Positions 11,723 to 55,490 of a DNA stretch of 64,000 nucleotides are shown piece after piece. The notes beneath the pieces are model-generated. The model saw nothing but the letters and a program-made list of their open reading frames with translations. It was not told where the DNA came from and did not search any database. Source of the stretch: Fidelibacterota bacterium. GTDB lineage: Bacteria > Fidelibacterota > Marinisomatia > SCGC-AAA003-L08 > GCA-2689995. The stretch's first letter is position 1, and each line of letters opens with the position of its first letter. A program made the translations under genes and the position numbers. Where the stretch lies: positions 35,767-99,766 of the forward strand of contig JACNKR010000037.1 in assembly GCA_014381925.1 (NCBI GenBank), in the 5' to 3' direction.

Positions 11723-13590
11723 TGAATAAAATATTTAAATATTCTATACTTATATTTATTATCTCAAATCTTTTTGGTAATAAAATTGAAATAAATATAC
11801 CATCCGTTTTATTAACAGGGATTAGTAATGAAATTCAAATAAATGTTAATGATTCGACAATTTTACCCTTTTTTTTACACATTGAAAATCAACAATATCA
11901 TATAAAAAAAATAAATAAGAAAATAAATCATATATTTGAAAAATCAGGAAAACATTCTATTAAATTAGAAAAAAAAGAATCAAATATGATTATAAAAAAA
12001 TTGATCGTTATTCCTGGACTAATATCAATTTTACCCCCTTTAATTGCAATATTAATGGCATTATTAACAAAACAAGTAATTCCATCATTATTTTTAGGAA
12101 TTTGGATTGGGGCTTGGTCTATTAATGGTTTTACCATAAAAAATATTTTTATTGGATTATTTAGAACTTTTGATACCTATATAATTCAATCATTAGTACC
12201 TCCTGATGGAGGAAGTGGGCATGCTTCAATTATTATGTTTTCTATGATGTTAGGGGGTATGATAGGCATAATTACTAAAAATGGCGGTGCAATGGGAATT
12301 GTTAATTTAATAACAAAATGGTCTAATAATTCAAGCCGAGGTCAGTTATCAGCCTCGATTTTTGGTACTGTTTTTTTTATTGATGATTATGCAAATACAT
12401 TAATTGTAGGAAATACCATAAAACCATTAACTGATAAATTAAGAATTTCAAGAGAAAAATTAGCTTATATTGTTGATTCTACCGCAGCACCTGTAGCCTG
12501 TATTGCACTAATCTCAACTTGGATTGGTTACGAAGTTGGATTAATTGGAGAATCTTTACCGCAGTTAAACTTAGAGAATCAATCACCTTATGGAATCTTT
12601 CTTCATTCTATAAAATATAGTTTTTATCCAATTTTAGCATTATTTTTTGTTTATTTAATTTCTATTACTCGAAAAGATTTTGGTCCAATGTGGGAATTTG
12701 AACAAAACGCACGGAAATTAGAAAAAAGTAACGATAATGAAATTGAACTTGATTCAGATGAAAAAAATATGTTACCAAAGAATAATGTAAACGCAAAAGC
12801 TTTAAATGCATTTATCCCAATTATTTTAGTTATTTTAACAACTATTTATGGCTTATTTATTACGGGTGAAGGAGAAACTTTTCAAGATATTATTGGCTCT
12901 GCTGATTCTTATTCGGCTCTATTATGGGCGTCATTAGTTGGTGTACTTTCAGCTATATTACTTTCAATTTTTCAACGAATTTTATCTCTAAATGAATCCA
13001 TGGATGCATGGTATTCAGGTGTTAGGTCTATGCTCTATACAATGATTATTTTACTATTGGCATGGGCATTGTCAAATACAACTGAAGTGTTGAGGACTGC
13101 CGATTATTTTGTTTCATTGTTAGGTGATAAAATTCATCCTGGATTTTTACCGGTAATAATTTTTATTATTTCATCTGCAACTTCATTTTCTACGGGAACA
13201 AGTTGGGGAACAATGGGTATTTTGATGCCGTTGACAATTCCACTTGTTGGGTCAATTTTATATTTAGATGGTGGAATTTCAGAGATAAATATTCATATTT
13301 TATATGCGTCTGTGTCTGCTGTTTTATGTGGTTCTGTATGGGGAGATCATTGTTCACCGATATCAGACACAACTATATTATCTTCAATTGCTTCAGGGTG
13401 TGACCATATAAATCATGTGAAATCTCAAATACCATACGCATTAGTTGTAGGTGGAGTAAGTATCATTTTTGGACTTATTCCAATCGGGTTTGGTGCACCG
13501 TGGTGGTTATGTTTGATAATATCATGTATAATTTTAACTGTCATATTAAATTTAATAGGCAAAGAAACTAAAAATTATTCAATTAATTAA
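11722..13590 (+). CDS. NhaC-family Na+/H+ antiporter-like transporter with an N-terminal extension of about 95 aa
   Basis: Polytopic protein. LPPLIAILMALLTKQVIPSLFLGIW and the C-terminal NhaC-type core. Confidence 0.8.
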   Translation: MNKIFKYSILIFIISNLFGNKIEINIPSVLLTGISNEIQINVNDSTILPFFLHIENQQYHIKKINKKINHIFEKSGKHSIKLEKKESNMIIKKLIVIPGLISILPPLIAILMALLTKQVIPSLFLGIWIGAWSINGFTIKNIFIGLFRTFDTYIIQSLVPPDGGSGHASIIMFSMMLGGMIGIITKNGGAMGIVNLITKWSNNSSRGQLSASIFGTVFFIDDYANTLIVGNTIKPLTDKLRISREKLAYIVDSTAAPVACIALISTWIGYEVGLIGESLPQLNLENQSPYGIFLHSIKYSFYPILALFFVYLISITRKDFGPMWEFEQNARKLEKSNDNEIELDSDEKNMLPKNNVNAKALNAFIPIILVILTTIYGLFITGEGETFQDIIGSADSYSALLWASLVGVLSAILLSIFQRILSLNESMDAWYSGVRSMLYTMIILLLAWALSNTTEVLRTADYFVSLLGDKIHPGFLPVIIFIISSATSFSTGTSWGTMGILMPLTIPLVGSILYLDGGISEINIHILYASVSAVLCGSVWGDHCSPISDTTILSSIASGCDHINHVKSQIPYALVVGGVSIIFGLIPIGFGAPWWLCLIISCIILTVILNLIGKETKNYSIN

Positions 13591-13603
13591 AAAAAGGAAA
13601 ACG

Positions 13604-16408
13604 ATGTTTAGAAAATTAATTATATTCATTTTATTATTTTTGTTTAGTACTTCTTGTGCGGTAATTAATAATACAAATGTTCAAAAAGATTTAAAATTAA
13701 ATCCAAAAATAAAAACAGGCAAATTAGAAAATGGATTAACATATTATGTTATGGAAAATGCTCGACCTGAAAATAGAGCTGAATTGATGCTTCTTGTAAA
13801 TGTGGGTTCAATTTTAGAAGAAGATCATCAACAGGGAATTGCTCATTTCACAGAACACATGGCATTTAATGGGACAAAACGTTTTCCTAAACAAGAATTA
13901 GTTAATTATCTTGAGTCAATTGGTTTAAAATTCGGACCTGATTTAAATGCATTTACAAGTTTTGATATGACCGTTTATATGCTTCAAGTTCCTTCAGATG
14001 AAAAAGATAAATTTGATACAGGCTTAATGATTTTAGAAGATTGGGCACATAATTTATCAATGGATAATGAAGAAATTGACAAAGAAAGAGGTGTTGTTTT
14101 AGAAGAACTTCGTATTGGTAAAGGTGCAAGAGAGCGAATGTTAAATAAAAAACTTCCTGTTTATTTGAAAGATTCTAAATATGCAAACCGTCTTCCAATT
14201 GGGAAAGAGGAGATATTAAAAACATTTGATTATTCTTCTGCCAAAGATTTTTATAAAGATTGGTATCGACCTGATTTAATGGCTATAGTTGCAATAGGTG
14301 ATTTTAAAGGAGATGAAGTTGTTAAGCAAATAAAAGCTCAATTTTCTAATATTCCAAAAGTAGAAAACCCAAAAGAAAGAAAAGAGTTCTCAGTACCACT
14401 TCATAATTATACAAGCTATTTAGTTACTGAGGATCCCGAAGCAACGAGTAGTTCTGTCGGAATATCGTACAAATCCCCAAAATCTAAGTTAGAAAACACT
14501 GAAGATGGTTTTAAAAAATCTGTATTAATTAATATGATGACTGAAATGTTTAATAATAGACTTTCTGAATTAACACAAAACCCTAAATCTTCTCTTATTT
14601 ATGGATATAATTATAGGGGAAGTTGGGTGAGAACGATTGATGGATTTAATGTTGGAGCAGGTGTAAAACCAGGAATGGTTTTAAATGGGCTGAATGAAAT
14701 ATTGACTGAATTAGAAAGAATTAAACAATTTGGATTTACAGAAACTGAATTTGAAAGACAAAAAAAATCATTTTTAAAATCAATTGATACACAGTTTAAT
14801 GAAAAAGATAAACAAGATTCAGACAGATTAAGATGGGAATTTTTAGACTTATTTTTTGAAAATAAAATTATTGTTGGGATTGAAAAGGAATATGAATTAG
14901 CTCAACAAATTATACCTAAACTAAACGTTTCTGATTTGAATAAATATATTGAACAAATTAAAGAATCAAATTGCAGAGTAATTACCGCAGATTGCCCAAA
15001 AAAAGAAGGTATTATTAATCCTACAAAAGATGAATTGAAACAAGTTGATTTGTCGGTTAAAAATAAACAAATCTATCCTTATGAAGATAAAATTATAGAT
15101 TCGCCTTTGCTTTCAGAAATACCAACTCCCAAGGAAATTATTGATTTTAAAAACCATGAAAAGATTGAAGGAATGGAATTTGTTTTAGAAAATGGTGTAC
15201 GAGTTATTTTAAAACCAACAGATTTTAAGAATGATGAAATCATTTTTAATGCATCTAGCCCTGGTGGAACAAGTTTAGTTTCTGATAAAGATTATATTTC
15301 AGCTAAATATGCTTCAAATATTATCTCTGAAAGTGGAATTGCAGAGTTTTCTAAAATTGAACTTGATAAATTTTTAAGTGATAAACAAGTTTCGGTTTCT
15401 CCATATATTAATGAATTAACAGAAGGATTTTCAGGCTCAAGCTCTGTTGCTGATGTAGAGACAATGTTTCAGTTAATATATCAATATTTTCACTCTCCTC
15501 GAAAAGATATTGATGCCTATACTGCATATATAGAAAATATGAAGGGAATGGTGCAAAATAGAAGTGCAAGGCCTGAAAATGTGTATAGAGACTCAATATC
15601 TGTAATTATGAACAGCAGGCATTTTAGAGCAAAACCAATAAATACACAATTATTAGATGATGTACACTTGGATACTGCTTATAATATATTTAAAGATAGA
15701 TTTAGCGATGCAAGTGATTTTACTTTTATTTTTGTCGGCTCTATAAATCCACAAACATTTATTCCATTAGCACAAACATATTTAGGAAATTTACCATCAA
15801 TAAATAGAAATGAAAATTGGAAAGATGTTGGTATTCGGTATCCAAGTGGGAATATTGAAAAAATTGTAAATAGAGGAATTGAAGAAAAAAGTTCTGTTCA
15901 AATTAGGTTTACAGGAGATTTTGATTGGAAAAGAGAAAATAGATATATTTATAAAACATTAACTTCTTCTTTTATGATTAAATTAAGAGAGATTTTAAGA
16001 GAAGATATGGGGGGGACTTATGGAGTTTGGGTCGGAGGATATCCTGAGTTTGAGCCTATTGAAGCATTCCAATCTATAATTGCTTTTGGATGTGGTCCTG
16101 AAAATGTAAATCCTATGGTAAATGAAGTTTTTAATCAACTTGAAATTCTTAAAAAAGAAGGAATAGATCAAACTTATTTAGATAAAGTTCTTGAAGCTGA
16201 TAAAGTAGAATATGAAAAAAATCTTCAAGAAAATTCTTATTGGTTAAGTGCAATTTCATCTTTTGATGATTTTGGAGAACCACTTTCTCAAATATTAGAA
16301 AGAGAAGAATTATATAAATTAGTTACAAATGAAAATATAATTAATGGAGCAAATATTTATTTTAATTCTAATAATGTATTAAAGGCTTATTTATTTCCTG
16401 AAAAATAA
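13604..16408 (+). CDS. M16 (pitrilysin/insulinase) family zinc peptidase, double-length
   Basis: Signal/lipobox-like N-terminus; inverted zinc motif HFTEHMAFNGT; 934 aa covering two M16 halves. Confidence 0.9.
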   Translation: MFRKLIIFILLFLFSTSCAVINNTNVQKDLKLNPKIKTGKLENGLTYYVMENARPENRAELMLLVNVGSILEEDHQQGIAHFTEHMAFNGTKRFPKQELVNYLESIGLKFGPDLNAFTSFDMTVYMLQVPSDEKDKFDTGLMILEDWAHNLSMDNEEIDKERGVVLEELRIGKGARERMLNKKLPVYLKDSKYANRLPIGKEEILKTFDYSSAKDFYKDWYRPDLMAIVAIGDFKGDEVVKQIKAQFSNIPKVENPKERKEFSVPLHNYTSYLVTEDPEATSSSVGISYKSPKSKLENTEDGFKKSVLINMMTEMFNNRLSELTQNPKSSLIYGYNYRGSWVRTIDGFNVGAGVKPGMVLNGLNEILTELERIKQFGFTETEFERQKKSFLKSIDTQFNEKDKQDSDRLRWEFLDLFFENKIIVGIEKEYELAQQIIPKLNVSDLNKYIEQIKESNCRVITADCPKKEGIINPTKDELKQVDLSVKNKQIYPYEDKIIDSPLLSEIPTPKEIIDFKNHEKIEGMEFVLENGVRVILKPTDFKNDEIIFNASSPGGTSLVSDKDYISAKYASNIISESGIAEFSKIELDKFLSDKQVSVSPYINELTEGFSGSSSVADVETMFQLIYQYFHSPRKDIDAYTAYIENMKGMVQNRSARPENVYRDSISVIMNSRHFRAKPINTQLLDDVHLDTAYNIFKDRFSDASDFTFIFVGSINPQTFIPLAQTYLGNLPSINRNENWKDVGIRYPSGNIEKIVNRGIEEKSSVQIRFTGDFDWKRENRYIYKTLTSSFMIKLREILREDMGGTYGVWVGGYPEFEPIEAFQSIIAFGCGPENVNPMVNEVFNQLEILKKEGIDQTYLDKVLEADKVEYEKNLQENSYWLSAISSFDDFGEPLSQILEREELYKLVTNENIINGANIYFNSNNVLKAYLFPEK

Positions 16409-38797: not shown

Positions 38798-41700
38798 ATG
38801 AATTATCCAAATATCCGTCGAGAATCCGTATTAAATCCGCTTTTAGAATTAGTAAAGGATTGTATAAAATCAAACCATACTGGAATAATTGAAATATATG
38901 GAAATGCGGGTTGTGGAAAAACAACAATTCTTAATCAAATTGAAGAATATTTTTCTTATTATGCTATTTTCCCACACATTAATCAAACAATTGGATATGA
39001 GCAATTTTCATTAATTTCATATTTATCTTCTTTAAATAATAATCATTTCAAACCTAAATTAGATGAAAATGAAATAATTTCACATCTTAGTGAACTTTTA
39101 CTTCAATCACGAAATTTTCAAAAAGATATTCAAATATTTATAATAGATGATTCTCATCTATTGTCTAAGGAGGTTATAAACCAATTAAAACTTATATTTA
39201 ATAAGTATAGTGGATTTTCAAATTACTTTTTAATTTTATCTGGTAGAGAGAAAAAACTAAATAATAATAGTATTGAGATTGGTCGTTTTTCAAAAAATGA
39301 GATTGATCATATTTTCCAATTATTTCTTAATAAAAAATGGGTAGAATTAAATACAGATATTTATGATTGGATTATAAAATTAACGGATGCTTGGCCTTTT
39401 TATTTAATTCTATTTTTAGAATGGGGGCTGAAGATTGGCACTCTCTCTAAAAAAACACAAAAACCTTTAGACCAAATTATATCAAGGCAATTGCCCGAGA
39501 ATTTACTTCAATCTGTAAATCAAAGATATAATCTTTCACTATTATCTGTCAAACAAAAAGAGATTATTGAATATATTTCATTCTCAACAAAACAGTTATC
39601 ATTTTTAGAATTAGCATCGTTAATTTCAATTCCAATAGGTGAGATTAATAATAATTGTAATTATCTTGAAAATGAGGGATGGATTAATGAAAATAATCAA
39701 TTATACCACCCCTTAATTGGAGAAATGGTAATTGGAAATTGTGAAAATATTCAAAATATAAATGAAAATTTTATTTTAAAGTTAGAATTACCTTTACACG
39801 AACAAGCATCGCACATTTTGAAATTAAATAAATTATCAAAAAACCATAAGTTGATTCTTGAAGAATATGGCGATGAAATTGAGTCAGAAGGACTTTTTTA
39901 TTCTGCGATAAAAACATTTGAAAAGATAGATCCAAAAAAACAATTAAATCATATTCAGTTTAAAATTGCAATAAATTTATATCGAATTGGAAAAAATAAT
40001 CAAAGTAAGGAAATACTTGAAAATTTAATTACGGATAATCGTTTTAATAATAGTTATAAGGTTTATTATTATTTAGGTCGAATATATTTTCTTCAAAATA
40101 AGCTTGATGATGTATTTAAAATTATAAATTTAGGATTAAAAAATGTCTTAGATGATTTTTCAGTTTATAAATTAAAATCTTTGATGATTGAATTATTGGT
40201 CATTAATGGTTCAAAAGATGAAGTCATCAAATTATTAAATGAAATACAGCCAACAGAAAAATCGACAATTGACGAAAAGCTAGAATATTATAATCTTATT
40301 GCACATATTCATCAGCATGCAATTGTAGAAATTGATGTGGTTTATATAATGGAAACAGGTATTGAGCTTGCTGAGAAACACAATAAAAATAGTAATTTAG
40401 TTAATTTAAATTTAGGTTTAATGAGGCATTATGCATTGACTGATGATGTGGAAAATGCATTGTTTTATGCAGAAAAAGCATATTCTCTAGCGAAAGCATG
40501 TTTTGAATTAAGATTAGTTGCGAGTATTTTATTAGAACGAGGTCAAATTTATGCTCGAAATGGCAAAGCTGGTATTGGAATAAAAGATTTAGAAACTGCA
40601 ATTGAGATGAATAAAAGTTTTGAAAATATAATAAATACATTAAATCCAATATCTCAAATGGCTGGGGTGTATGAAATGTTAAATCATATACCAAAATCTG
40701 ACAAAACTCATTCAAATTTATCTGTTCTATTAAAGGAAAATGATAACTTTGATTCTTTACTTGGTTTAGGGATTTATTATCAACTCAGACAAAATTATAG
40801 TAAATCAATACATATTTATAATGCACTTATAATTAAAATTGACAAAATTAATAATGAAAATATTAAAGCTTTTTTATTGGGAGTATTTTATCCAACTATT
40901 TTTAGTAAAGATGAAAAACAAGCAGATAAGAACTTTAATCAAGCTGTAAATGATTTAATTCGTTTAAAAACAATTTATTATCTTCATGCACCCTTTCATG
41001 CAAAGGGTTGGGTATTAATAAATAGTTCGCAAGAAAATAATCTCTCATCACATTTGCAAAAATGGGTTGAAATTATAAAAGATGAAAATGAAATCCCATT
41101 AGATTTTTATCAACCATTAATGATTATTAATGAAATAACCCAAGGTGAAAAACAAAATGCACTTCATCGCTTACGACGATTTGAATCTCGATTTGAAGGT
41201 GCAAATATTCTTCAATATAAAAATCTTTATGATTGGTTAATTAAAGAAAATACATATCCAAAATTTACGAACAGATATAAAGTTATTTCAGAGCTTATAA
41301 ATTCAATAACACATGTTGATAAAAAATTAAATAAAATATCAGTTAATAAATCAGATGAATTTTTAGACTTTTTAATAGAATGGCAGAGATGTATTCATGT
41401 AGAGAAAGATTTTGAAAAATCAATTTTAAATCGATTTGTTCAGAATGAAAGTCAAAAAGATTGTTTATTGGATACTTTAATTGTGTGGGATATATCATTG
41501 TCCAAATTTGAAGATGATATAGCATCTCATTCAAAATTAATTTCAATCCAATTATTAGGAAAGCCAAATGTGAGTATAGAAAAAGTATTAATAAATAAAG
41601 ACCTCAGAGGCGTAAATAAACCAATTGAATTGTTTATTTATCTCATATTAAAAGGATGGAGATTTAATAATCAATTATCAAAAGAACGAATTGCTTCTCA

Positions 41701-42151
41701 ATTATGGGACGATGATATAGAAGATATTGATAGTAAAGTCAAAAAATTAAATATTACACTTTCACGATTAAGGAAATCTTTAAATAATAAAGATAATAGC
41801 TATATATTAAATAAACTTAACTCTATTGGGTTTAATTGGGACTATTCTAATTATCGGTTAGATATAGATGACTTTTATCAATCATATAATCTTGGTAAAG
41901 ATGCATTAAATAATAAAGAATTGGATAAAGGAATTTCATATTTAAAACATGCAATAAATGTATATGGTGGATATTTGTGCAATAAATTAAAATCTGAATG
42001 GATTGATGAAATAAGAGCAACATTTCATAATTATTACTTAGATTGTTTAATAATATTATCTGAAAATTTATCAGATAAAGAAAAACAAAAATTATTATAT
42101 TCTGAACAATTAAAATTCCCTGACGAAGAAATAGAAGAGTATTTTGATTAA
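38798..42151 (+). CDS. STAND-type ATPase with TPR-like middle region and C-terminal SARP-like wHTH + BTAD transcriptional activator domain
   Basis: Walker A GNAGCGKTT (about nt 38900) and Walker B IFIIDDSHLL. Long helical-repeat region. From nt 41540: ISIQLLGKP...ERIASQLWDDD...LNITLSRLRKSL (OmpR/SARP wHTH), then YRLDIDDF...AINVYGGYL......W..EIR (BTAD). Confidence 0.75.
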   Translation: MNYPNIRRESVLNPLLELVKDCIKSNHTGIIEIYGNAGCGKTTILNQIEEYFSYYAIFPHINQTIGYEQFSLISYLSSLNNNHFKPKLDENEIISHLSELLLQSRNFQKDIQIFIIDDSHLLSKEVINQLKLIFNKYSGFSNYFLILSGREKKLNNNSIEIGRFSKNEIDHIFQLFLNKKWVELNTDIYDWIIKLTDAWPFYLILFLEWGLKIGTLSKKTQKPLDQIISRQLPENLLQSVNQRYNLSLLSVKQKEIIEYISFSTKQLSFLELASLISIPIGEINNNCNYLENEGWINENNQLYHPLIGEMVIGNCENIQNINENFILKLELPLHEQASHILKLNKLSKNHKLILEEYGDEIESEGLFYSAIKTFEKIDPKKQLNHIQFKIAINLYRIGKNNQSKEILENLITDNRFNNSYKVYYYLGRIYFLQNKLDDVFKIINLGLKNVLDDFSVYKLKSLMIELLVINGSKDEVIKLLNEIQPTEKSTIDEKLEYYNLIAHIHQHAIVEIDVVYIMETGIELAEKHNKNSNLVNLNLGLMRHYALTDDVENALFYAEKAYSLAKACFELRLVASILLERGQIYARNGKAGIGIKDLETAIEMNKSFENIINTLNPISQMAGVYEMLNHIPKSDKTHSNLSVLLKENDNFDSLLGLGIYYQLRQNYSKSIHIYNALIIKIDKINNENIKAFLLGVFYPTIFSKDEKQADKNFNQAVNDLIRLKTIYYLHAPFHAKGWVLINSSQENNLSSHLQKWVEIIKDENEIPLDFYQPLMIINEITQGEKQNALHRLRRFESRFEGANILQYKNLYDWLIKENTYPKFTNRYKVISELINSITHVDKKLNKISVNKSDEFLDFLIEWQRCIHVEKDFEKSILNRFVQNESQKDCLLDTLIVWDISLSKFEDDIASHSKLISIQLLGKPNVSIEKVLINKDLRGVNKPIELFIYLILKGWRFNNQLSKERIASQLWDDDIEDIDSKVKKLNITLSRLRKSLNNKDNSYILNKLNSIGFNWDYSNYRLDIDDFYQSYNLGKDALNNKELDKGISYLKHAINVYGGYLCNKLKSEWIDEIRATFHNYYLDCLIILSENLSDKEKQKLLYSEQLKFPDEEIEEYFD

Positions 42152-42170
42152 AATAATTAGATCAATTTGT

Positions 42171-42250
42171 GCGGACTTTTAGGTCACTCCTATGGAGTTC
42201 ATGTTTATTTTTAGGTTAATGTGTTATTAATAGTGCACCTCTCCGAGGTT
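42171..42250. repeat. 80-nt element A, copy 1 of 3
   Basis: GCGGACTTTTAGGTCACTCCTATGGAGTTCATGTTTATTTTTAGGTTAATGTGTTATTAATAG..CACCTCTCCGAGGTT. It differs from copies 2 and 3 at 3 positions each, all in the last 20 nt. Confidence 0.95.
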
Positions 42251-42312
42251 AAAATCAAATTTAAAATTATATTACGTTGTTTGTAATAATAGAATATTGA
42301 GTATATGATTTA

Positions 42313-42361
42313 ATTCACAATTCATATTTTATAATTCAAAATTCATATTTCATAATTGTAA
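42313..42361. repeat. 7-bp-period heptad array (7 units, ATTCAnA type)
   Basis: ATTCACA ATTCATA TTTTATA ATTCAAA ATTCATA TTTCATA ATTGTAA. Confidence 0.85.
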
Positions 42362-42495
42362 GTTTTTATACTCCTTTGATATTAAGAAAAATATAGATGA
42401 GAAAAAAATTAATGCTGTTATTAAATATTAGTAGAAGTGACGCATGCGTCGCCACTACAAAATAAATTAATCGCTCATAAACCTCCTGTTTTTTT

Positions 42496-42523
42496 ATTCA
42501 AAATTCATATTTCATAATTATAA
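42496..42523. repeat. heptad array (4 units); identical copy at 42800-42827
   Basis: ATTCAAA ATTCATA TTTCATA ATTATAA. Confidence 0.85.
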
Positions 42524-42591
42524 GTTTTTATACTCCAGAGGAGTAATCTATTTGTAATAATAAATCAAGATAAATAATTAGCTCTATGGGA

Positions 42592-42671
42592 GCGGACTTT
42601 TAGGTCACTCCTATGGAGTTCATGTTTATTTTTAGGTTAATGTGTTATTAATAGGTCACCTCTCCGAAGTT
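42592..42671. repeat. 80-nt element A, copy 2 of 3
   Basis: Direct comparison with 42171-42250 and 42896-42975. Confidence 0.95.
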
Positions 42672-42895
42672 TGATGAAAACCACAAATAAATGAAGTAAT
42701 CGCTTGTTCAATAATATTAAAAATTATATAAAATGTAATAACGACGCATGCGTCGCCACTACAAAATAAATTAATCGCTCATAAACCTCCTGTTTTTTTA
42801 TTCAAAATTCATATTTCATAATTATAAGTTTTTATACTCCAGAGGAGTAATCTATTTGTAATAATAAATCAAGATAAATAATTAGCTCTATGGGA

Positions 42896-42975
42896 GCGGA
42901 CTTTTAGGTCACTCCTATGGAGTTCATGTTTATTTTTAGGTTAATGTGTTATTAATAGGTTACCTCTCCGAGGTT
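42896..42975. repeat. 80-nt element A, copy 3 of 3
   Basis: Direct comparison. Together with the following 76 nt (to 43051) it repeats 42171-42326 with about 5 mismatches. Confidence 0.95.
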
Positions 42976-43037
42976 AAAATCAAATTTAAAATTATATTAC
43001 TTTGTCTGTAATAATAGAATATTGAGTATATGATTTA

Positions 43038-43072
43038 ATTCACAATTCATAATTCAAAATTCACAATTCATA
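43038..43072. repeat. heptad array (5 perfect-period units)
   Basis: ATTCACA ATTCATA ATTCAAA ATTCACA ATTCATA. Confidence 0.9.
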
Positions 43073-43308
43073 ATTACTATTTTGTTCTACGGTTTTCAGC
43101 ATCCAAAATTACAATTATTCCCTTATTTTACCCCGATTAACAAAAAAAATAAAAAAATTTTACTTTTTTGTAATTAATTTTAAAATCGATGTTTTAATAT
43201 AGTGTACCATCATCTTTTATTAAAAATAATTTTATAAAAACACTAAATATCACCCATTTTCACCCCGAATTCATTTATGTTGAAAGGTTTTTTTTGTATA
43301 TTATAACT

Positions 43309-43530
43309 ATGAATTTTACGACTCTTGATAATGACATTTTTTTCGTTTGCAGAAATTGTGAATATTTTCGGTTTATCACAACCGAAAACAAGGCACATAT
43401 TTATTGCTCGCGATGTGGAAATGATATGGAGAACAAGTGTCGTAAATGTGGTTTAGAATATAATAATCCATTCTCGAAATTTTGTGAGAGGTGTGGAGAG
43501 AATATAACAAAAGTTAGAATTACAGATTAA
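43309..43530 (+). CDS. double zinc-ribbon protein, unknown function
   Basis: Four CxxC pairs (CRNC, CSRC, CRKC, CERC) in 73 aa. ATG at 43309 is preferred over the TTG at 43294. Confidence 0.6.
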   Translation: MNFTTLDNDIFFVCRNCEYFRFITTENKAHIYCSRCGNDMENKCRKCGLEYNNPFSKFCERCGENITKVRITD

Positions 43531-48399: not shown

Positions 48400-48558
48400 A
48401 TGGTAAGTAATGGAATAACATCTAGTATCTTATTTGGATTAGAAATAATTGGTTCAGCGATAACAAAACTTATTGAGGAGGTCATTATGGATATTTCAAA
48501 TATTTTCATTTTATGTGTTTGGTATGGTGCGATGTATCTGCGAGAACTTGGTGGTTAG
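48400..48558 (+). CDS. possible 52-aa hydrophobic small protein (or a 23-aa peptide starting at 48487)
   Basis: MVSNGITSSILFGLEIIGSAITKLIEEVIMDISNIFILCVWYGAMYLRELGG. The internal ATG at 48487 has a strong GAGGAGG 5 nt upstream. It falls below the ORF-track length cutoff. Confidence 0.3.
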   Translation: MVSNGITSSILFGLEIIGSAITKLIEEVIMDISNIFILCVWYGAMYLRELGG

Positions 48559-48648
48559 CATCTAATCCAAATAAGAGATAAACGGTATTATAAAATAATT
48601 TGCTTGCCAAGAGATACAAAGCGGGATTCAATTCCCCGCTCTCGCACC
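48539..48648 (+). other. tRNA-like structured element (acceptor-like helix + T-arm-like hairpin + ACC), not a canonical tRNA
   Basis: TGCGAGA (48539-45) pairs perfectly with TCTCGCA (48640-46). CGGGA-TTCAATT-CCCCG forms a T-arm-like hairpin. An inner CTTGG/CCAAG helix is present. No D or anticodon arm can be drawn, and the length is about 110 nt. Confidence 0.3.
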
Positions 48649-48705
48649 TAAATTTAAAATGGCACGCTATTATTCATAATTAAAAAAAGAAAGAGGTAGA
48701 GTTAA

Positions 48706-54284: not shown

Positions 54285-54465
54285 TTTTCCTCCTCCCAAG
54301 AAGAATATTGTTTAATTATTGCCCCATAATATATAAATAGTTAAATGCTAGAAGTAAGATGAATTATTAAGATAAAATAATTTATGATTAACATCAACAT
54401 AATTACAGATATTAGTTAATTTTATTGCTTGTTATTATAAAATATTAAATATTATAAAAAATTAT

Positions 54466-54492
54466 TAAAGGTTATTAAATTTTATCCGATAA
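54466..54492 (+). promoter_or_regulatory. sigma-28 (FliA)-type promoter
   Basis: TAAAGGTT-N11-TCCGATAA compared with the enterobacterial consensus TAAAGTTT-N11-GCCGATAA. It lies about 108 nt upstream of the flagellin ATG. Confidence 0.7.
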
Positions 54493-54599: not shown

Positions 54600-55490
54600 A
54601 TGTTTGGTGACATAACAAGAGTAGGTGCGAATTTCAATGCAATGGAATCGCTGTTTAATTTAAAAAGAGTAAATGGTGAGATTGGTCAAGTACAATCTCG
54701 ATTATCATCAGGTAAGCGGATTAATTCAGCTGAGGATGATACATCAGGATATGCTTTATCAAAACATCTTCAAAGTAGAGTGAATGGTTTAACTCAGGCA
54801 TTAGATAATGTTTCAACTGCAAAAAATGTTTTAAATATTGCAGAGGGTGGATATCAATCTCAAATGAGTATTCTTCAACAAATAAAAGAAAGTTTAACAC
54901 AGGCGGCCGATGGTGCTTTAAGTACTGAGCAAAGAGGTGCAATTGGTGACCGTATTCATTCATTATTGACAGAAATTGATGATATTAAAAGTCAAACTAA
55001 ATATAATGGATATACTTTGTTTACGGATAGTGGTTCAGATAGAACAATGACTTTCCAAGTTGGTGAAGAAAATACAGACACATTTGCGGTTACATTTAAT
55101 TCATCTGGTAGAAATGATATAGGTGAAACGGGTGGTATTGATATTGATAGTATAGTTGGTTCAAATACTGGAAGTGCAGCTTCTGGTGATTGGGCAGCAT
55201 TAGATCAAACAGAAGCTACTGCTGGAATTTTAACTTTAGATAGTGCTATTAAATCAATGGCTAAAACTATCCAGCAAATGGGTGATGATCAAGCACGATT
55301 AACATCTAAAGAAGAATCCTTATCATTAGGTATTTCAAATACAGAAGCGACAAGAAGTCGAATTGAAGATGCTGATTTTGCTAAAGAGCAAATGACGATG
55401 ATGAAGTTGCAAATTTTACAACAGACATCAATATCAGCATTTACGCAATCGAATTCTGCACCGCAAGTTGTATTATCATTATTTAGATAA
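54600..55490 (+). CDS. fliC: flagellin (short, D0/D1-only type)
   Basis: N-terminal SRLSSGKRINSAEDDTSGYALS...L.QA..N...A.N.L..AEG and C-terminal IEDADFAKE...K.QILQQ...A...QSN..PQ.VLSL.R. Confidence 0.9.
   Translation: MFGDITRVGANFNAMESLFNLKRVNGEIGQVQSRLSSGKRINSAEDDTSGYALSKHLQSRVNGLTQALDNVSTAKNVLNIAEGGYQSQMSILQQIKESLTQAADGALSTEQRGAIGDRIHSLLTEIDDIKSQTKYNGYTLFTDSGSDRTMTFQVGEENTDTFAVTFNSSGRNDIGETGGIDIDSIVGSNTGSAASGDWAALDQTEATAGILTLDSAIKSMAKTIQQMGDDQARLTSKEESLSLGISNTEATRSRIEDADFAKEQMTMMKLQILQQTSISAFTQSNSAPQVVLSLFR

Follow-up and report, generated by a model that had tools for sequence, protein, structure and literature searches.

Genes and modules at the locus

A window of 64,000 nucleotides (64 kb) from a Fidelibacterota bacterium (contig JACNKR010000037.1 of GenBank assembly GCA_014381925.1) contains a 1157-nt (1.16-kb) intergenic region, at window positions 42152 to 43308, that is filled by an array of duplicated, hairpin-forming noncoding modules. 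The array is located between a gene encoding a regulator with a SARP-type module and an operon that begins with a small double-zinc-ribbon open reading frame (ORF). An earlier note on this DNA had drawn attention to recurrent, short, G+C-rich palindromes (dyads) in the region, which it read as operators of a dimeric protein or as RNA stem-loops, with a speculative comparison to small RNAs (sRNAs) that titrate CsrA. All of these dyads fall within the one intergenic region.

The array was parsed into modules in the order a1, b (P1), c, d (P2), e, a2, f, d (P3), e, a3, and b' (P4), followed by the zinc-ribbon operon (Table 1). Three kinds of parts make up this order: promoter-like modules (P) that contain heptad repeats and end in TATACT; an inverted repeat of about 140 nt, designated e-a; and a GC-rich hairpin around GACGCATGCGTC, which is followed by CCTCCTG and a run of seven T residues (T7). 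The remaining 63 kb of the window contained no further copy of any module, and no ORF of at least 40 amino acids was found in the intergenic region. Module c has a 22-codon ORF, but frameshifts in two related versions of the locus (contigs L008 and L012) led to its rejection as a gene. A replication origin was also considered and rejected, given a monotonic rise of the cumulative GC skew across the region and the lack of a dnaA context. The window has a GC content of about 28%, and the GC skew is strongly positive (+0.2).

TABLE 1 Modules of the intergenic array and its flanking genes, in window coordinates
Feature	Position(s)	Strand	Description
Regulator gene	38798–42151	+	1117-aa STAND-type ATPase with TPR and C-terminal SARP-type winged helix-turn-helix (wHTH) and BTAD; directly 5' of array
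Module a, copy 1 (a1)	42172–42250	+	Just past regulator stop codon; ACTCC-TAT-GGAGT 42186–42198, ACCTC-TCC-GAGGT 42237–42249
Module b/P1	42251–42374	+	Spacer, heptad array 42311–42357, TAAGTTTT-TATACT 42367–42372, ending in ACTCC 42370–42374; TRF, repeat family D2, heptad motif search
Module c	42375–42438	+	Short-unit spacer, starts TTTGAT; diverged homologue of f
GC-rich hairpin, c version	42428–42461	.	Around GACGCATGCGTC 42439–42450; −12.2 kcal/mol on +, −11.1 on −
Module d tail and P2	42462–42536	+	TTAATCGCTCATAAACCTCCTG, T7 42489–42495, three heptads 42497–42520, TATACT 42529–42534 overlapping ACTCC 42532–42536; family D1
e-a unit 1	42532–42671	+	Imperfect inverted repeat, ~140 nt; ACTCC-AGA-GGAGT 42532–42544, GCTC-TATGG-GAGC 42581–42593, ACTCC-TAT-GGAGT 42607–42619, ACCTC-TCC-GAAGT 42658–42670
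Module f	42672–42742	+	Long-unit spacer, AT-rich, starts TTTGAT
GC-rich hairpin, f version	42734–42765	−	Around GACGCATGCGTC 42743–42754; 13-bp stem then UUUUAUAUAAUUUUU, terminator-like
Module d tail and P3	42766–42840	+	Second copy of 42462–42536; TATACT 42833–42838
e-a unit 2	42836–42975	+	Best-paired copy; dyads 42836–42848, 42885–42897, 42911–42923, 42962–42974
Module b'/P4	42976–43082	+	Spacer, heptad array 43037–43075, then ACTATTTTGTTCTACGG; 5' of 226-nt zinc-ribbon gene leader; family D2, 91% to 42151–42357
Heptad arrays	42311–42357, 42497–42520, 42801–42824, 43037–43075		Upstream of each unit and of zinc-ribbon operon leader
Double-zinc-ribbon ORF	43309–43530	+	Small; reading frame checked; first gene 3' of array; the next genes encode a lipoprotein-like protein, a 489-aa protein, and a BACON/fn3 protein

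Origin of the dyads by duplication

The positions and spacings claimed in the earlier note were largely reproduced. ACTCC-N3-GGAGT was found at exactly 42186, 42532, 42607, 42836, and 42911 and nowhere else in the 64 kb, with zero occurrences expected from shuffled sequences; within the same window, the 12-mer GACGCATGCGTC occurred only at 42439 and 42743, and GCTC-N5-GAGC occurred only at 42581 and 42885. The described 304-bp tandem unit (42439 to 42671 versus 42743 to 42975, 99% identity), the centre-to-centre spacing of 75 bp between dyads (about 7 helical turns), and the longer imperfect hairpin around the first 12-mer (42428 to 42461, −12.2 kcal/mol) were also correct. The CCTC-TCC-GAGG dyad was present in full as ACCTC-TCC-GAGGT at 42237 and 42962, and its middle copy, at 42658, was imperfect (GAAGT).

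The implied independence of these occurrences did not stand, as the sites sit in modules that exist in two or three copies, all inside a single intergenic region. The seven dyad occurrences collapse to about three original sequences: the three copies of ACTCC-TAT-GGAGT represent module a, present three times at 95 to 98% identity, and the two copies of ACTCC-AGA-GGAGT and the two 12-mers represent two copies of a 99.6%-identical tandem unit. Because the dyads are copied modules, the shuffle statistics measure duplication and not recurrent selection of a motif. About four mini-dyads are independent (ACTCC-AGA-GGAGT, GCTC[T/C]..GGAGC, ACTCC-TAT-GGAGT, and ACCTC-TCC-GAGGT), all of them with a CTCC/GGAG-type core, and the GC-rich palindrome is a fifth. 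The dyads are copies of three or four hairpin-forming sequences in a recently duplicated and reshuffled noncoding stretch, and they are most likely part of small units composed of a promoter and a structured RNA, not a set of protein-binding or CsrA-binding sites.

Hairpin potential of the e-a inverted repeat

The second e-a unit folds on the plus strand into one long hairpin of 54 pairs, 11 of them G·U (minimum free energy [MFE], −50.9 kcal/mol; z = −7.1), with lower stability on the minus strand (MFE, −31.1 kcal/mol; z = −4.0). The long hairpin of the first unit has predicted energies of −45.6 kcal/mol on the plus strand versus −32.9 kcal/mol on the minus strand, and the plus-strand fold was the more stable in six of six e-a copies. 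In this long fold, GCTC..GAGC pairs with ACTCC-TAT-GGAGT, and the partner of ACTCC-AGA-GGAGT is the ACCTCTCCGAGG end; the four mini-dyads are therefore an alternative, local form of a larger palindrome. In the first copy of module a, the upstream GCTC..GAGC hairpin is degenerate, and the copy by itself folds at a z score of about 0, without significance.

Signs of selection were sought in six e-a copies from four versions of the locus (mean column identity, 94%). The four mini-hairpins were paired in 94.2% of the cells of this alignment and included two double-sided, pair-preserving changes, both in the GCTC..GAGC helix, which takes the forms GCUCU-AUG-GGAGC, GCUCC-AUC-GGAGC, ACUCU-AUC-AGAGU, and ACUCC-AUC-AGAGU. 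The covariation score of the mini-hairpins was 0.108 versus 0.059 in shuffled alignments (reached in 21 of 500 shuffles). G·U pairs outnumbered A/C mismatches on the plus strand by 11:1 in the MFE structure and by 9:3 when the arms were aligned. Assignment of a strand from wobble pairs was rejected as contradictory between hairpins and confounded by GC skew. Columns within the dyads were no better conserved than the others, with 10 of 42 variable versus 12 of 99 elsewhere. Taken by sequence comparison, hairpin formation has modest support and sequence-specific operator constraint has none, and the strand assignment is not secure. The RNA stem-loops proposed earlier are thus the part of that proposal that survives, through pairing in 94% of cells, the two double-sided changes, and a TG..CA/CG..CG exchange in the GC-rich palindrome; the reading as dimeric-protein operators, which the note had put first, is weakly supported, with dyad columns no better conserved than the rest and half-sites that change symmetrically.

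The GC-rich hairpin and its flanks

The second kind of unit, c/f-d, consists of a spacer starting with TTTGAT (c and f are diverged homologues), the GC-rich hairpin, TTAATCGCTCATAAACCTCCTG, and the T7 run. The exchange of TG..CA for CG..CG between the c and f versions of the palindrome is compensatory. In four of five copies, the minus-strand form of this hairpin was the more stable one; the f version (−16.2 to −16.8 kcal/mol on the minus strand versus −7.8 kcal/mol on the plus strand) has a 13-bp stem followed by a U-rich tail, UUUUAUAUAAUUUUU, and is a credible minus-strand terminator. A scan with a terminator consensus flagged seven sites versus 0.4 expected, and the stems of the ACTCC dyads are only 5 to 6 bp long. 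The d tail and the P stretch that follows it are kept in the four copies of module d in the window and L008, and a truncated copy (d') in L012 diverges past the hairpin. Some genes in the window are preceded by the Shine-Dalgarno sequence GGAGG, so the CCUCC tract before T7 could be meaningful; speculatively, it could act as an anti-Shine-Dalgarno seed.

The d tail was also read on the minus strand (42467 to 42488 and 42771 to 42792), where CAGGAGGTTT-ATG-AGC-GAT-TAA presents an AGGAGG sequence resembling a Shine-Dalgarno site, a 3-codon ORF, and then the terminator-like GC-rich hairpin. This layout is kept in both copies of the window and both copies of L008 and is missing from the truncated d' of L012. 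The 3-codon ORF was rejected as a gene, as only a 3-nt spacer follows AGGAGG.

Promoter-like modules and the adjoining regulator

The P modules contain contiguous arrays of heptads (TAATTCA/AATTCAC, also with a 21-bp period), with about 6.7, 3, 3, and 5.6 copies in P1 to P4, respectively. The heptads precede TAAGTTTT-TATACT in P1 to P3 and the operon leader in P4. Within the window, 10 of the 11 matches to the motif, which the earlier note did not mention, lie in this region. TATACT lies directly 5' of the units in P1 to P3, and it does so in every P copy of the window and L008 and in one of the two copies of L011; the other copy of L011 has TATACTTC in its place. The promoter-like module is the best-conserved part of the array and always lies 5' of the units. 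As judged from its letters, TATACT is a good candidate −10 hexamer. It overlaps the ACTCC of the first dyad, which would place the start of a transcript within that dyad or directly behind it. Heptameric direct repeats near −35 are the binding sites of SARP proteins (PMC10972967); by the rule for these sites, the heptamers overlap the −35 element, with spacers of 4 to 15 nt and an 11-bp spacing (PMC10972967).

The gene directly 5' of the array encodes a protein with Pfam matches to AAA_22 and TPR. Its C-terminal 217 amino acids gave weak, correctly ordered matches to Trans_reg_C (7.6e-4) and then BTAD (0.036). Compared to 1.84 billion representative proteins, this segment had 103 homologues, and among 30 homologues sampled, 25 matched BTAD (best, 2.6e-25) and 19 matched Trans_reg_C. 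The C-terminal segment is a genuine SARP-type DNA-binding and activator module, because its homologues match both families (transitive homology). This Pfam evidence was used in place of a structural comparison, as a single-sequence AlphaFold model of the domain (pLDDT, 44) was unusable for a fold search. The C-terminal location of the module is the reverse of the usual N-terminal arrangement, and its host is a nonactinomycete, AT-rich marine bacterium. About one-quarter of the 103 listed homologues were proteins of approximately 1000 to 1200 amino acids with a C-terminal module, a similar architecture.

Rearranged versions of the locus in related genomes

The closest relatives of the window were all marine metagenome contigs. 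Orthologous regulator genes were found in them at 97%, 89%, and 74% identity, and nearly all of the contigs end within a few hundred bases 3' of this gene. Conservation at homologous loci, which the earlier note had named as a check, was found in part: the dyads are kept where the regulator is at least 97% identical, and they are absent 3' of the regulator at 89% and 74%. Since the relatives at 89% and 74% lack the modules there, the array is young. In the 74% relative (L001 at 13355 to 13624; likewise L002, L005, and L006), a gene for an IS3-family transposase (MGPRKRRQFTKDFKIESV...) begins about 115 nt past the regulator stop codon, and all of these contigs end inside it. The site 3' of the regulator therefore takes insertions in more than one lineage.

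Among the closest relatives, the modules differ in number and order. L008 carries the order a, f, d, e, a*, c, d, e, a, b, and L011 carries a, b, e, a, b, e, a, b', without c, d, and f and hence without the 12-mer palindrome. In L012, the block e, a, b is inverted and joined to c at ..CAAATAGATTACTCC/TTTGATATT.., a junction that matches the product of an exchange between the inverted 7-mers AGGAGTA and TACTCCT, found in the window at 42369 (plus strand) and at 42539 and 42843 (minus strand). When the contexts of ACTCC were tabulated, several left partners and three right partners were found, variously recombined; the dyads therefore mark rearrangement junctions. L008 and L011 both come from JGI sample 3300024344, so that two arrangements coexist in one metagenome sample. 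Because they also differ by point substitutions, they represent separate strains and not alternative states of a single genome. For this organism, most assemblies are broken or collapsed inside the array (L013 to L017 and L020).

Logan contigs contained a 432-nt version with only a and b', which is 725 bp shorter and whose variant bases are a mosaic of the a1/a3 and b1/b' types. It was not used as an ancestral state, since the mosaic bases point to probable repeat collapse in assemblies made with k = 31.

Searches for further copies returned little beyond the locus itself. A scan of metagenome contigs for CGCTCATAAACCTCCTGTTT gave zero matches, although L008 holds this sequence, so the collection is incomplete. 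A pattern for the core of module a gave one chance match among genome contigs, in a high-GC coding region of Pseudonocardiales; among metagenome contigs, in a collection that is incomplete and missed L008, it matched L011 and one similar chance sequence. Three viral scans found nothing. BLAST against annotated collections gave no match among phages and only low-complexity heptad matches among plasmids. Rfam gave no match at the gathering threshold, and at E values of up to 10 it gave only chance matches of the snoRNA and miRNA types, with no model of the CsrB or RsmX/Y/Z type.

Interpretation of the array

The reading that we favour, with a probability of roughly 0.4, is that the region is a strain-variable set of tandem noncoding transcription units under SARP-type promoters. 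The P modules, with contiguous AATTCAN heptads and a −10-like TATACT, would be the likely targets of the SARP-type activator encoded next door, and transcription from them would start at or just past ACTCC. Two kinds of RNA would result: an e-a RNA of about 140 nt, folded as four small local hairpins or as one long hairpin, and a c/f-d segment with the GC-rich hairpin and an exposed, anti-Shine-Dalgarno-like CCUCC tract, in which module d may be read on either strand. The activator would probably also control the zinc-ribbon operon through P4. The array is young and unstable, with unit number and order differing between close strains and breakpoints at the ACTCC dyads.

Several observations weigh against these proposals. 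Relatives whose regulators are 89% and 74% identical lack the element at this position, so it is not an old conserved RNA. The predicted promoters and start sites are consensus guesses: a scan for sigma-70 promoters was not enriched (18 sites versus 13.6 in shuffles), nor was the Bacteroidetes-type −7 motif (TAnnTTTG) in the intergenic DNA of the window. The heptads here are contiguous and not spaced at 11 bp, so that the SARP parallel is incomplete. The covariation statistics are weak, being drawn from six closely related copies only, and the mini-hairpins are themselves weak (−4.1 to −5.4 kcal/mol each, with stems of 5 to 6 bp). The long hairpin was paired in 90.5% of cells without any compensatory change; its pairs break where copies vary, and a 3-by-3 loop interrupts it at columns 15 to 17/125 to 127 in most copies. 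Changes compatible with wobble pairing favour different strands in different hairpins, and the strong positive GC skew, instead of selection, could yield the plus-strand excess of G·U pairs.

That the modules are neutral debris is rather unlikely. On this explanation, e-a is a decaying palindromic insertion, either like a miniature inverted-repeat transposable element (MITE) or an inverted duplication, the remainder stems from recent segmental duplication in a tolerant stretch of AT-rich intergenic DNA, and all that the dyads do is to make the DNA more liable to rearrange. The ends of e-a do resemble terminal inverted repeats (GGAGTAATCTATT.. versus the reverse complement of ..AATAGGTCACCTC), its arms are about 75% complementary, and P-c versus P-[e-a]-f resembles an empty versus a filled site, with both c and f starting with TTTGAT. 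Restriction of the element to very close relatives, loss of long-hairpin pairing at variable positions, dyad columns no better conserved than their flanks, and the IS3-family transposase that the 74% relative has at this position, a hint that the site tolerates insertions, are all consistent with debris. This reading sits poorly with the lack of any other module copy in the remaining 63 kb and with scans for the module a core that matched this locus only, apart from chance matches in high-GC coding DNA (the metagenome collection being incomplete). Nor is there a clear target-site duplication, only the similar sequences CTCCAGAGG and CTCCGAGG at the two ends. Pair-preserving double changes in one mini-hairpin and in the GC-rich palindrome, and a promoter-like module that is best conserved and always ahead of the units, likewise weigh against debris.

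It is unlikely that the ACTCC dyads are crossover sites of a site-specific recombination system (a phase switch or shufflon) serving the units and the downstream surface-protein operon, with its recombinase encoded elsewhere. The inverted block of L012 includes a P module, its junction fits an exchange between AGGAGTA and TACTCCT, and these 7-mers flank the segment; ACTCC has three alternative continuations and several predecessors; contigs of relatives break at this region; and the L008 and L011 arrangements were found in one sample. However, those two are different strains by their point substitutions, and the inversion is known from one 860-bp contig of a short-read assembly and may reflect an artefact or one event that became fixed. 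The approximately 40 window ORFs scanned included no recombinase or transposase, arms of 5 to 7 bp around a 3-bp spacer are far shorter than known recombinase core sites, and illegitimate recombination, mediated by microhomology or stimulated by palindromes, would give the same junctions with no dedicated system. The related claim that the 13-nt dyads serve as crossover sites of a system that shuffles or inverts promoters, whether through a recombinase elsewhere or through palindrome-directed recombination used adaptively, is likewise unlikely.

We consider it improbable that the dyads are operators of a dimeric protein, with ACTCC-AGA-GGAGT over the −10/+1 region of P and ACTCC-TAT-GGAGT 75 bp downstream, joined by looping. 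The 75-bp spacing of about 7 helical turns, the overlap of the promoter-proximal dyad with the TATACT box, and the half-site ACTCC/GGAGT shared by two dyads with different centres (a third shares CTCC-N3-GGAG) would all fit such a pair. The half-sites are identical, however, because the two dyads are paralogous copies (TAG-RTY-ACTCC-TNT-GGAGT in both), and each mini-hairpin is also part of a larger inverted repeat. Half-sites change symmetrically in L011 (GCTCC..GGAGC to ACTCT..AGAGT), other copies have unconstrained changes in a single half-site, and dyad columns are at least as variable as their flanks (10/42 versus 12/99). The a1 copy follows a stop codon and has no promoter. No candidate gene for a dimeric repressor is adjacent, and the SARP winged-helix class of the neighbouring protein binds direct repeats and not palindromes. 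The suggestion that the units encode an sRNA that titrates CsrA/Rsm through repeated GGA motifs deserves hardly any weight. There are about four GGA motifs per e-a unit in 28%-GC DNA, one dyad has GGA in its loop when read on the minus strand (ACCUC-GGA-GAGGU), and the window includes a flagellin gene; CsrA is often linked to flagellar regulation. On the plus strand, the loops are UAU, AGA, AUG/AUC, and UCC, without GGA, and every GGA lies in a stem; known sponge RNAs have far more such motifs; the window ORFs scanned included no csrA; and Rfam gave no match. The comparison with CsrA-titrating sRNAs was therefore not borne out.

Other features of the window

Outside the array, the window contains housekeeping genes, the flagellin gene, and a gene for a protein with a sorting domain of the type IX secretion system (T9SS), which points to a bacterium of the FCB group. 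No recombinase, integrase, resolvase, or transposase domain was found among the approximately 40 window ORFs scanned, and scans of the neighbouring proteins for defence systems and against NCBIfam gave nothing significant. Inside the zinc-ribbon ORF, positions 43365 to 43388 contain a perfect 9-bp stem (TTTTCGGTT-TATCAC-AACCGAAAA), and gene callers of public assemblies call an overlapping 51-aa ORF on the minus strand (43243 to 43398) instead of the zinc-ribbon gene. Farther downstream, a 326-nt gap between ORFs of annotated size contains a 23-codon hydrophobic ORF at 48487 to 48558 (MDISNIFILCVWYGAMYLRELGG) with a strong Shine-Dalgarno sequence (TTGAGGAGGTCATT-ATG). At 48619 to 48650, GCGGGATTCAATTCCCCGCTCTCGCACC resembles the T arm and 3' acceptor strand of a tRNA; no tRNA was called here by ARAGORN or Rfam, and the piece may be left over from an integration site. 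A sigma-28-like promoter sequence (TAAA...CCGATAAT) is located at approximately 54460 to 54490, 5' of the flagellin gene (54600 to 55490).

Relation to known systems and significance

The array is a lineage-specific case of a known class, that of duplicated intergenic hairpin or noncoding RNA modules. OmrA/OmrB, activated by the winged-helix regulator OmpR, and PrrF1/PrrF2 are tandem duplicated sRNA genes that share a promoter architecture. Like them, the array has adjacent paralogous noncoding units, each following a nearly identical promoter-like module, and the activator implicated is of the winged-helix type. Unlike them, it has no sequence or Rfam relationship to a known family, varies in unit number and order, and includes one inverted block, and its units are long, near-perfect hairpins, not sRNAs built from a seed and a terminator. 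Palindromic intergenic repeats and MITEs, such as ERIC, Correia elements, and REP/BIME, are a second point of comparison. The array shares with these an intergenic, imperfect palindrome of about 140 nt that is possibly cotranscribed and, with the REP consensus, a GC-rich hairpin framed by GTAG...CTAC. It differs in not being dispersed, as all copies seen are in one intergenic region, and in having no evident target-site duplication and no RAYT or transposase gene in the window. Invertible promoter switches are known as fimS of Escherichia coli and as the invertons of Bacteroides and Mycoplasma. As in those switches, a promoter-like block of about 260 to 300 bp is flanked by inverted repeats of 7 to 10 bp and occurs in the opposite orientation in one relative (L012). 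In contrast, there is no recombinase gene nearby, a single inverted instance was found, the inverted repeats are formed by the arms of 13-nt dyads, and the block also exists as tandem copies.

As in the SARP promoters of Streptomyces (PMC10972967), a regulator with wHTH and BTAD adjoins putative promoters preceded by heptamer direct repeats. The heptads here are contiguous (periods of 7 and 21) and not spaced at 11 bp; the SARP module is C-terminal in a STAND ATPase-TPR protein; and the module resides in a marine, AT-rich nonactinomycete that carries T9SS and flagellin genes, where the apparent targets are noncoding units and a small surface-protein operon.

If the units are silent, the locus would be a case of ordinary palindrome-driven instability in a tolerant intergenic region, which explains why metagenome assemblies break or collapse there. 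If promoter shuffling takes place, the units and operon would be rewired behind SARP-activated heptad promoters, giving heritable, strain-level, and possibly phase-variable expression states, and programmed shuffling at the dyads, if shown, would greatly raise the importance of the locus. If the units are transcribed, they would constitute a lineage-specific family of highly structured small RNAs under a SARP-type activator outside the actinomycetes and a concrete case of regulatory RNA genes born and multiplied by local duplication and inversion.

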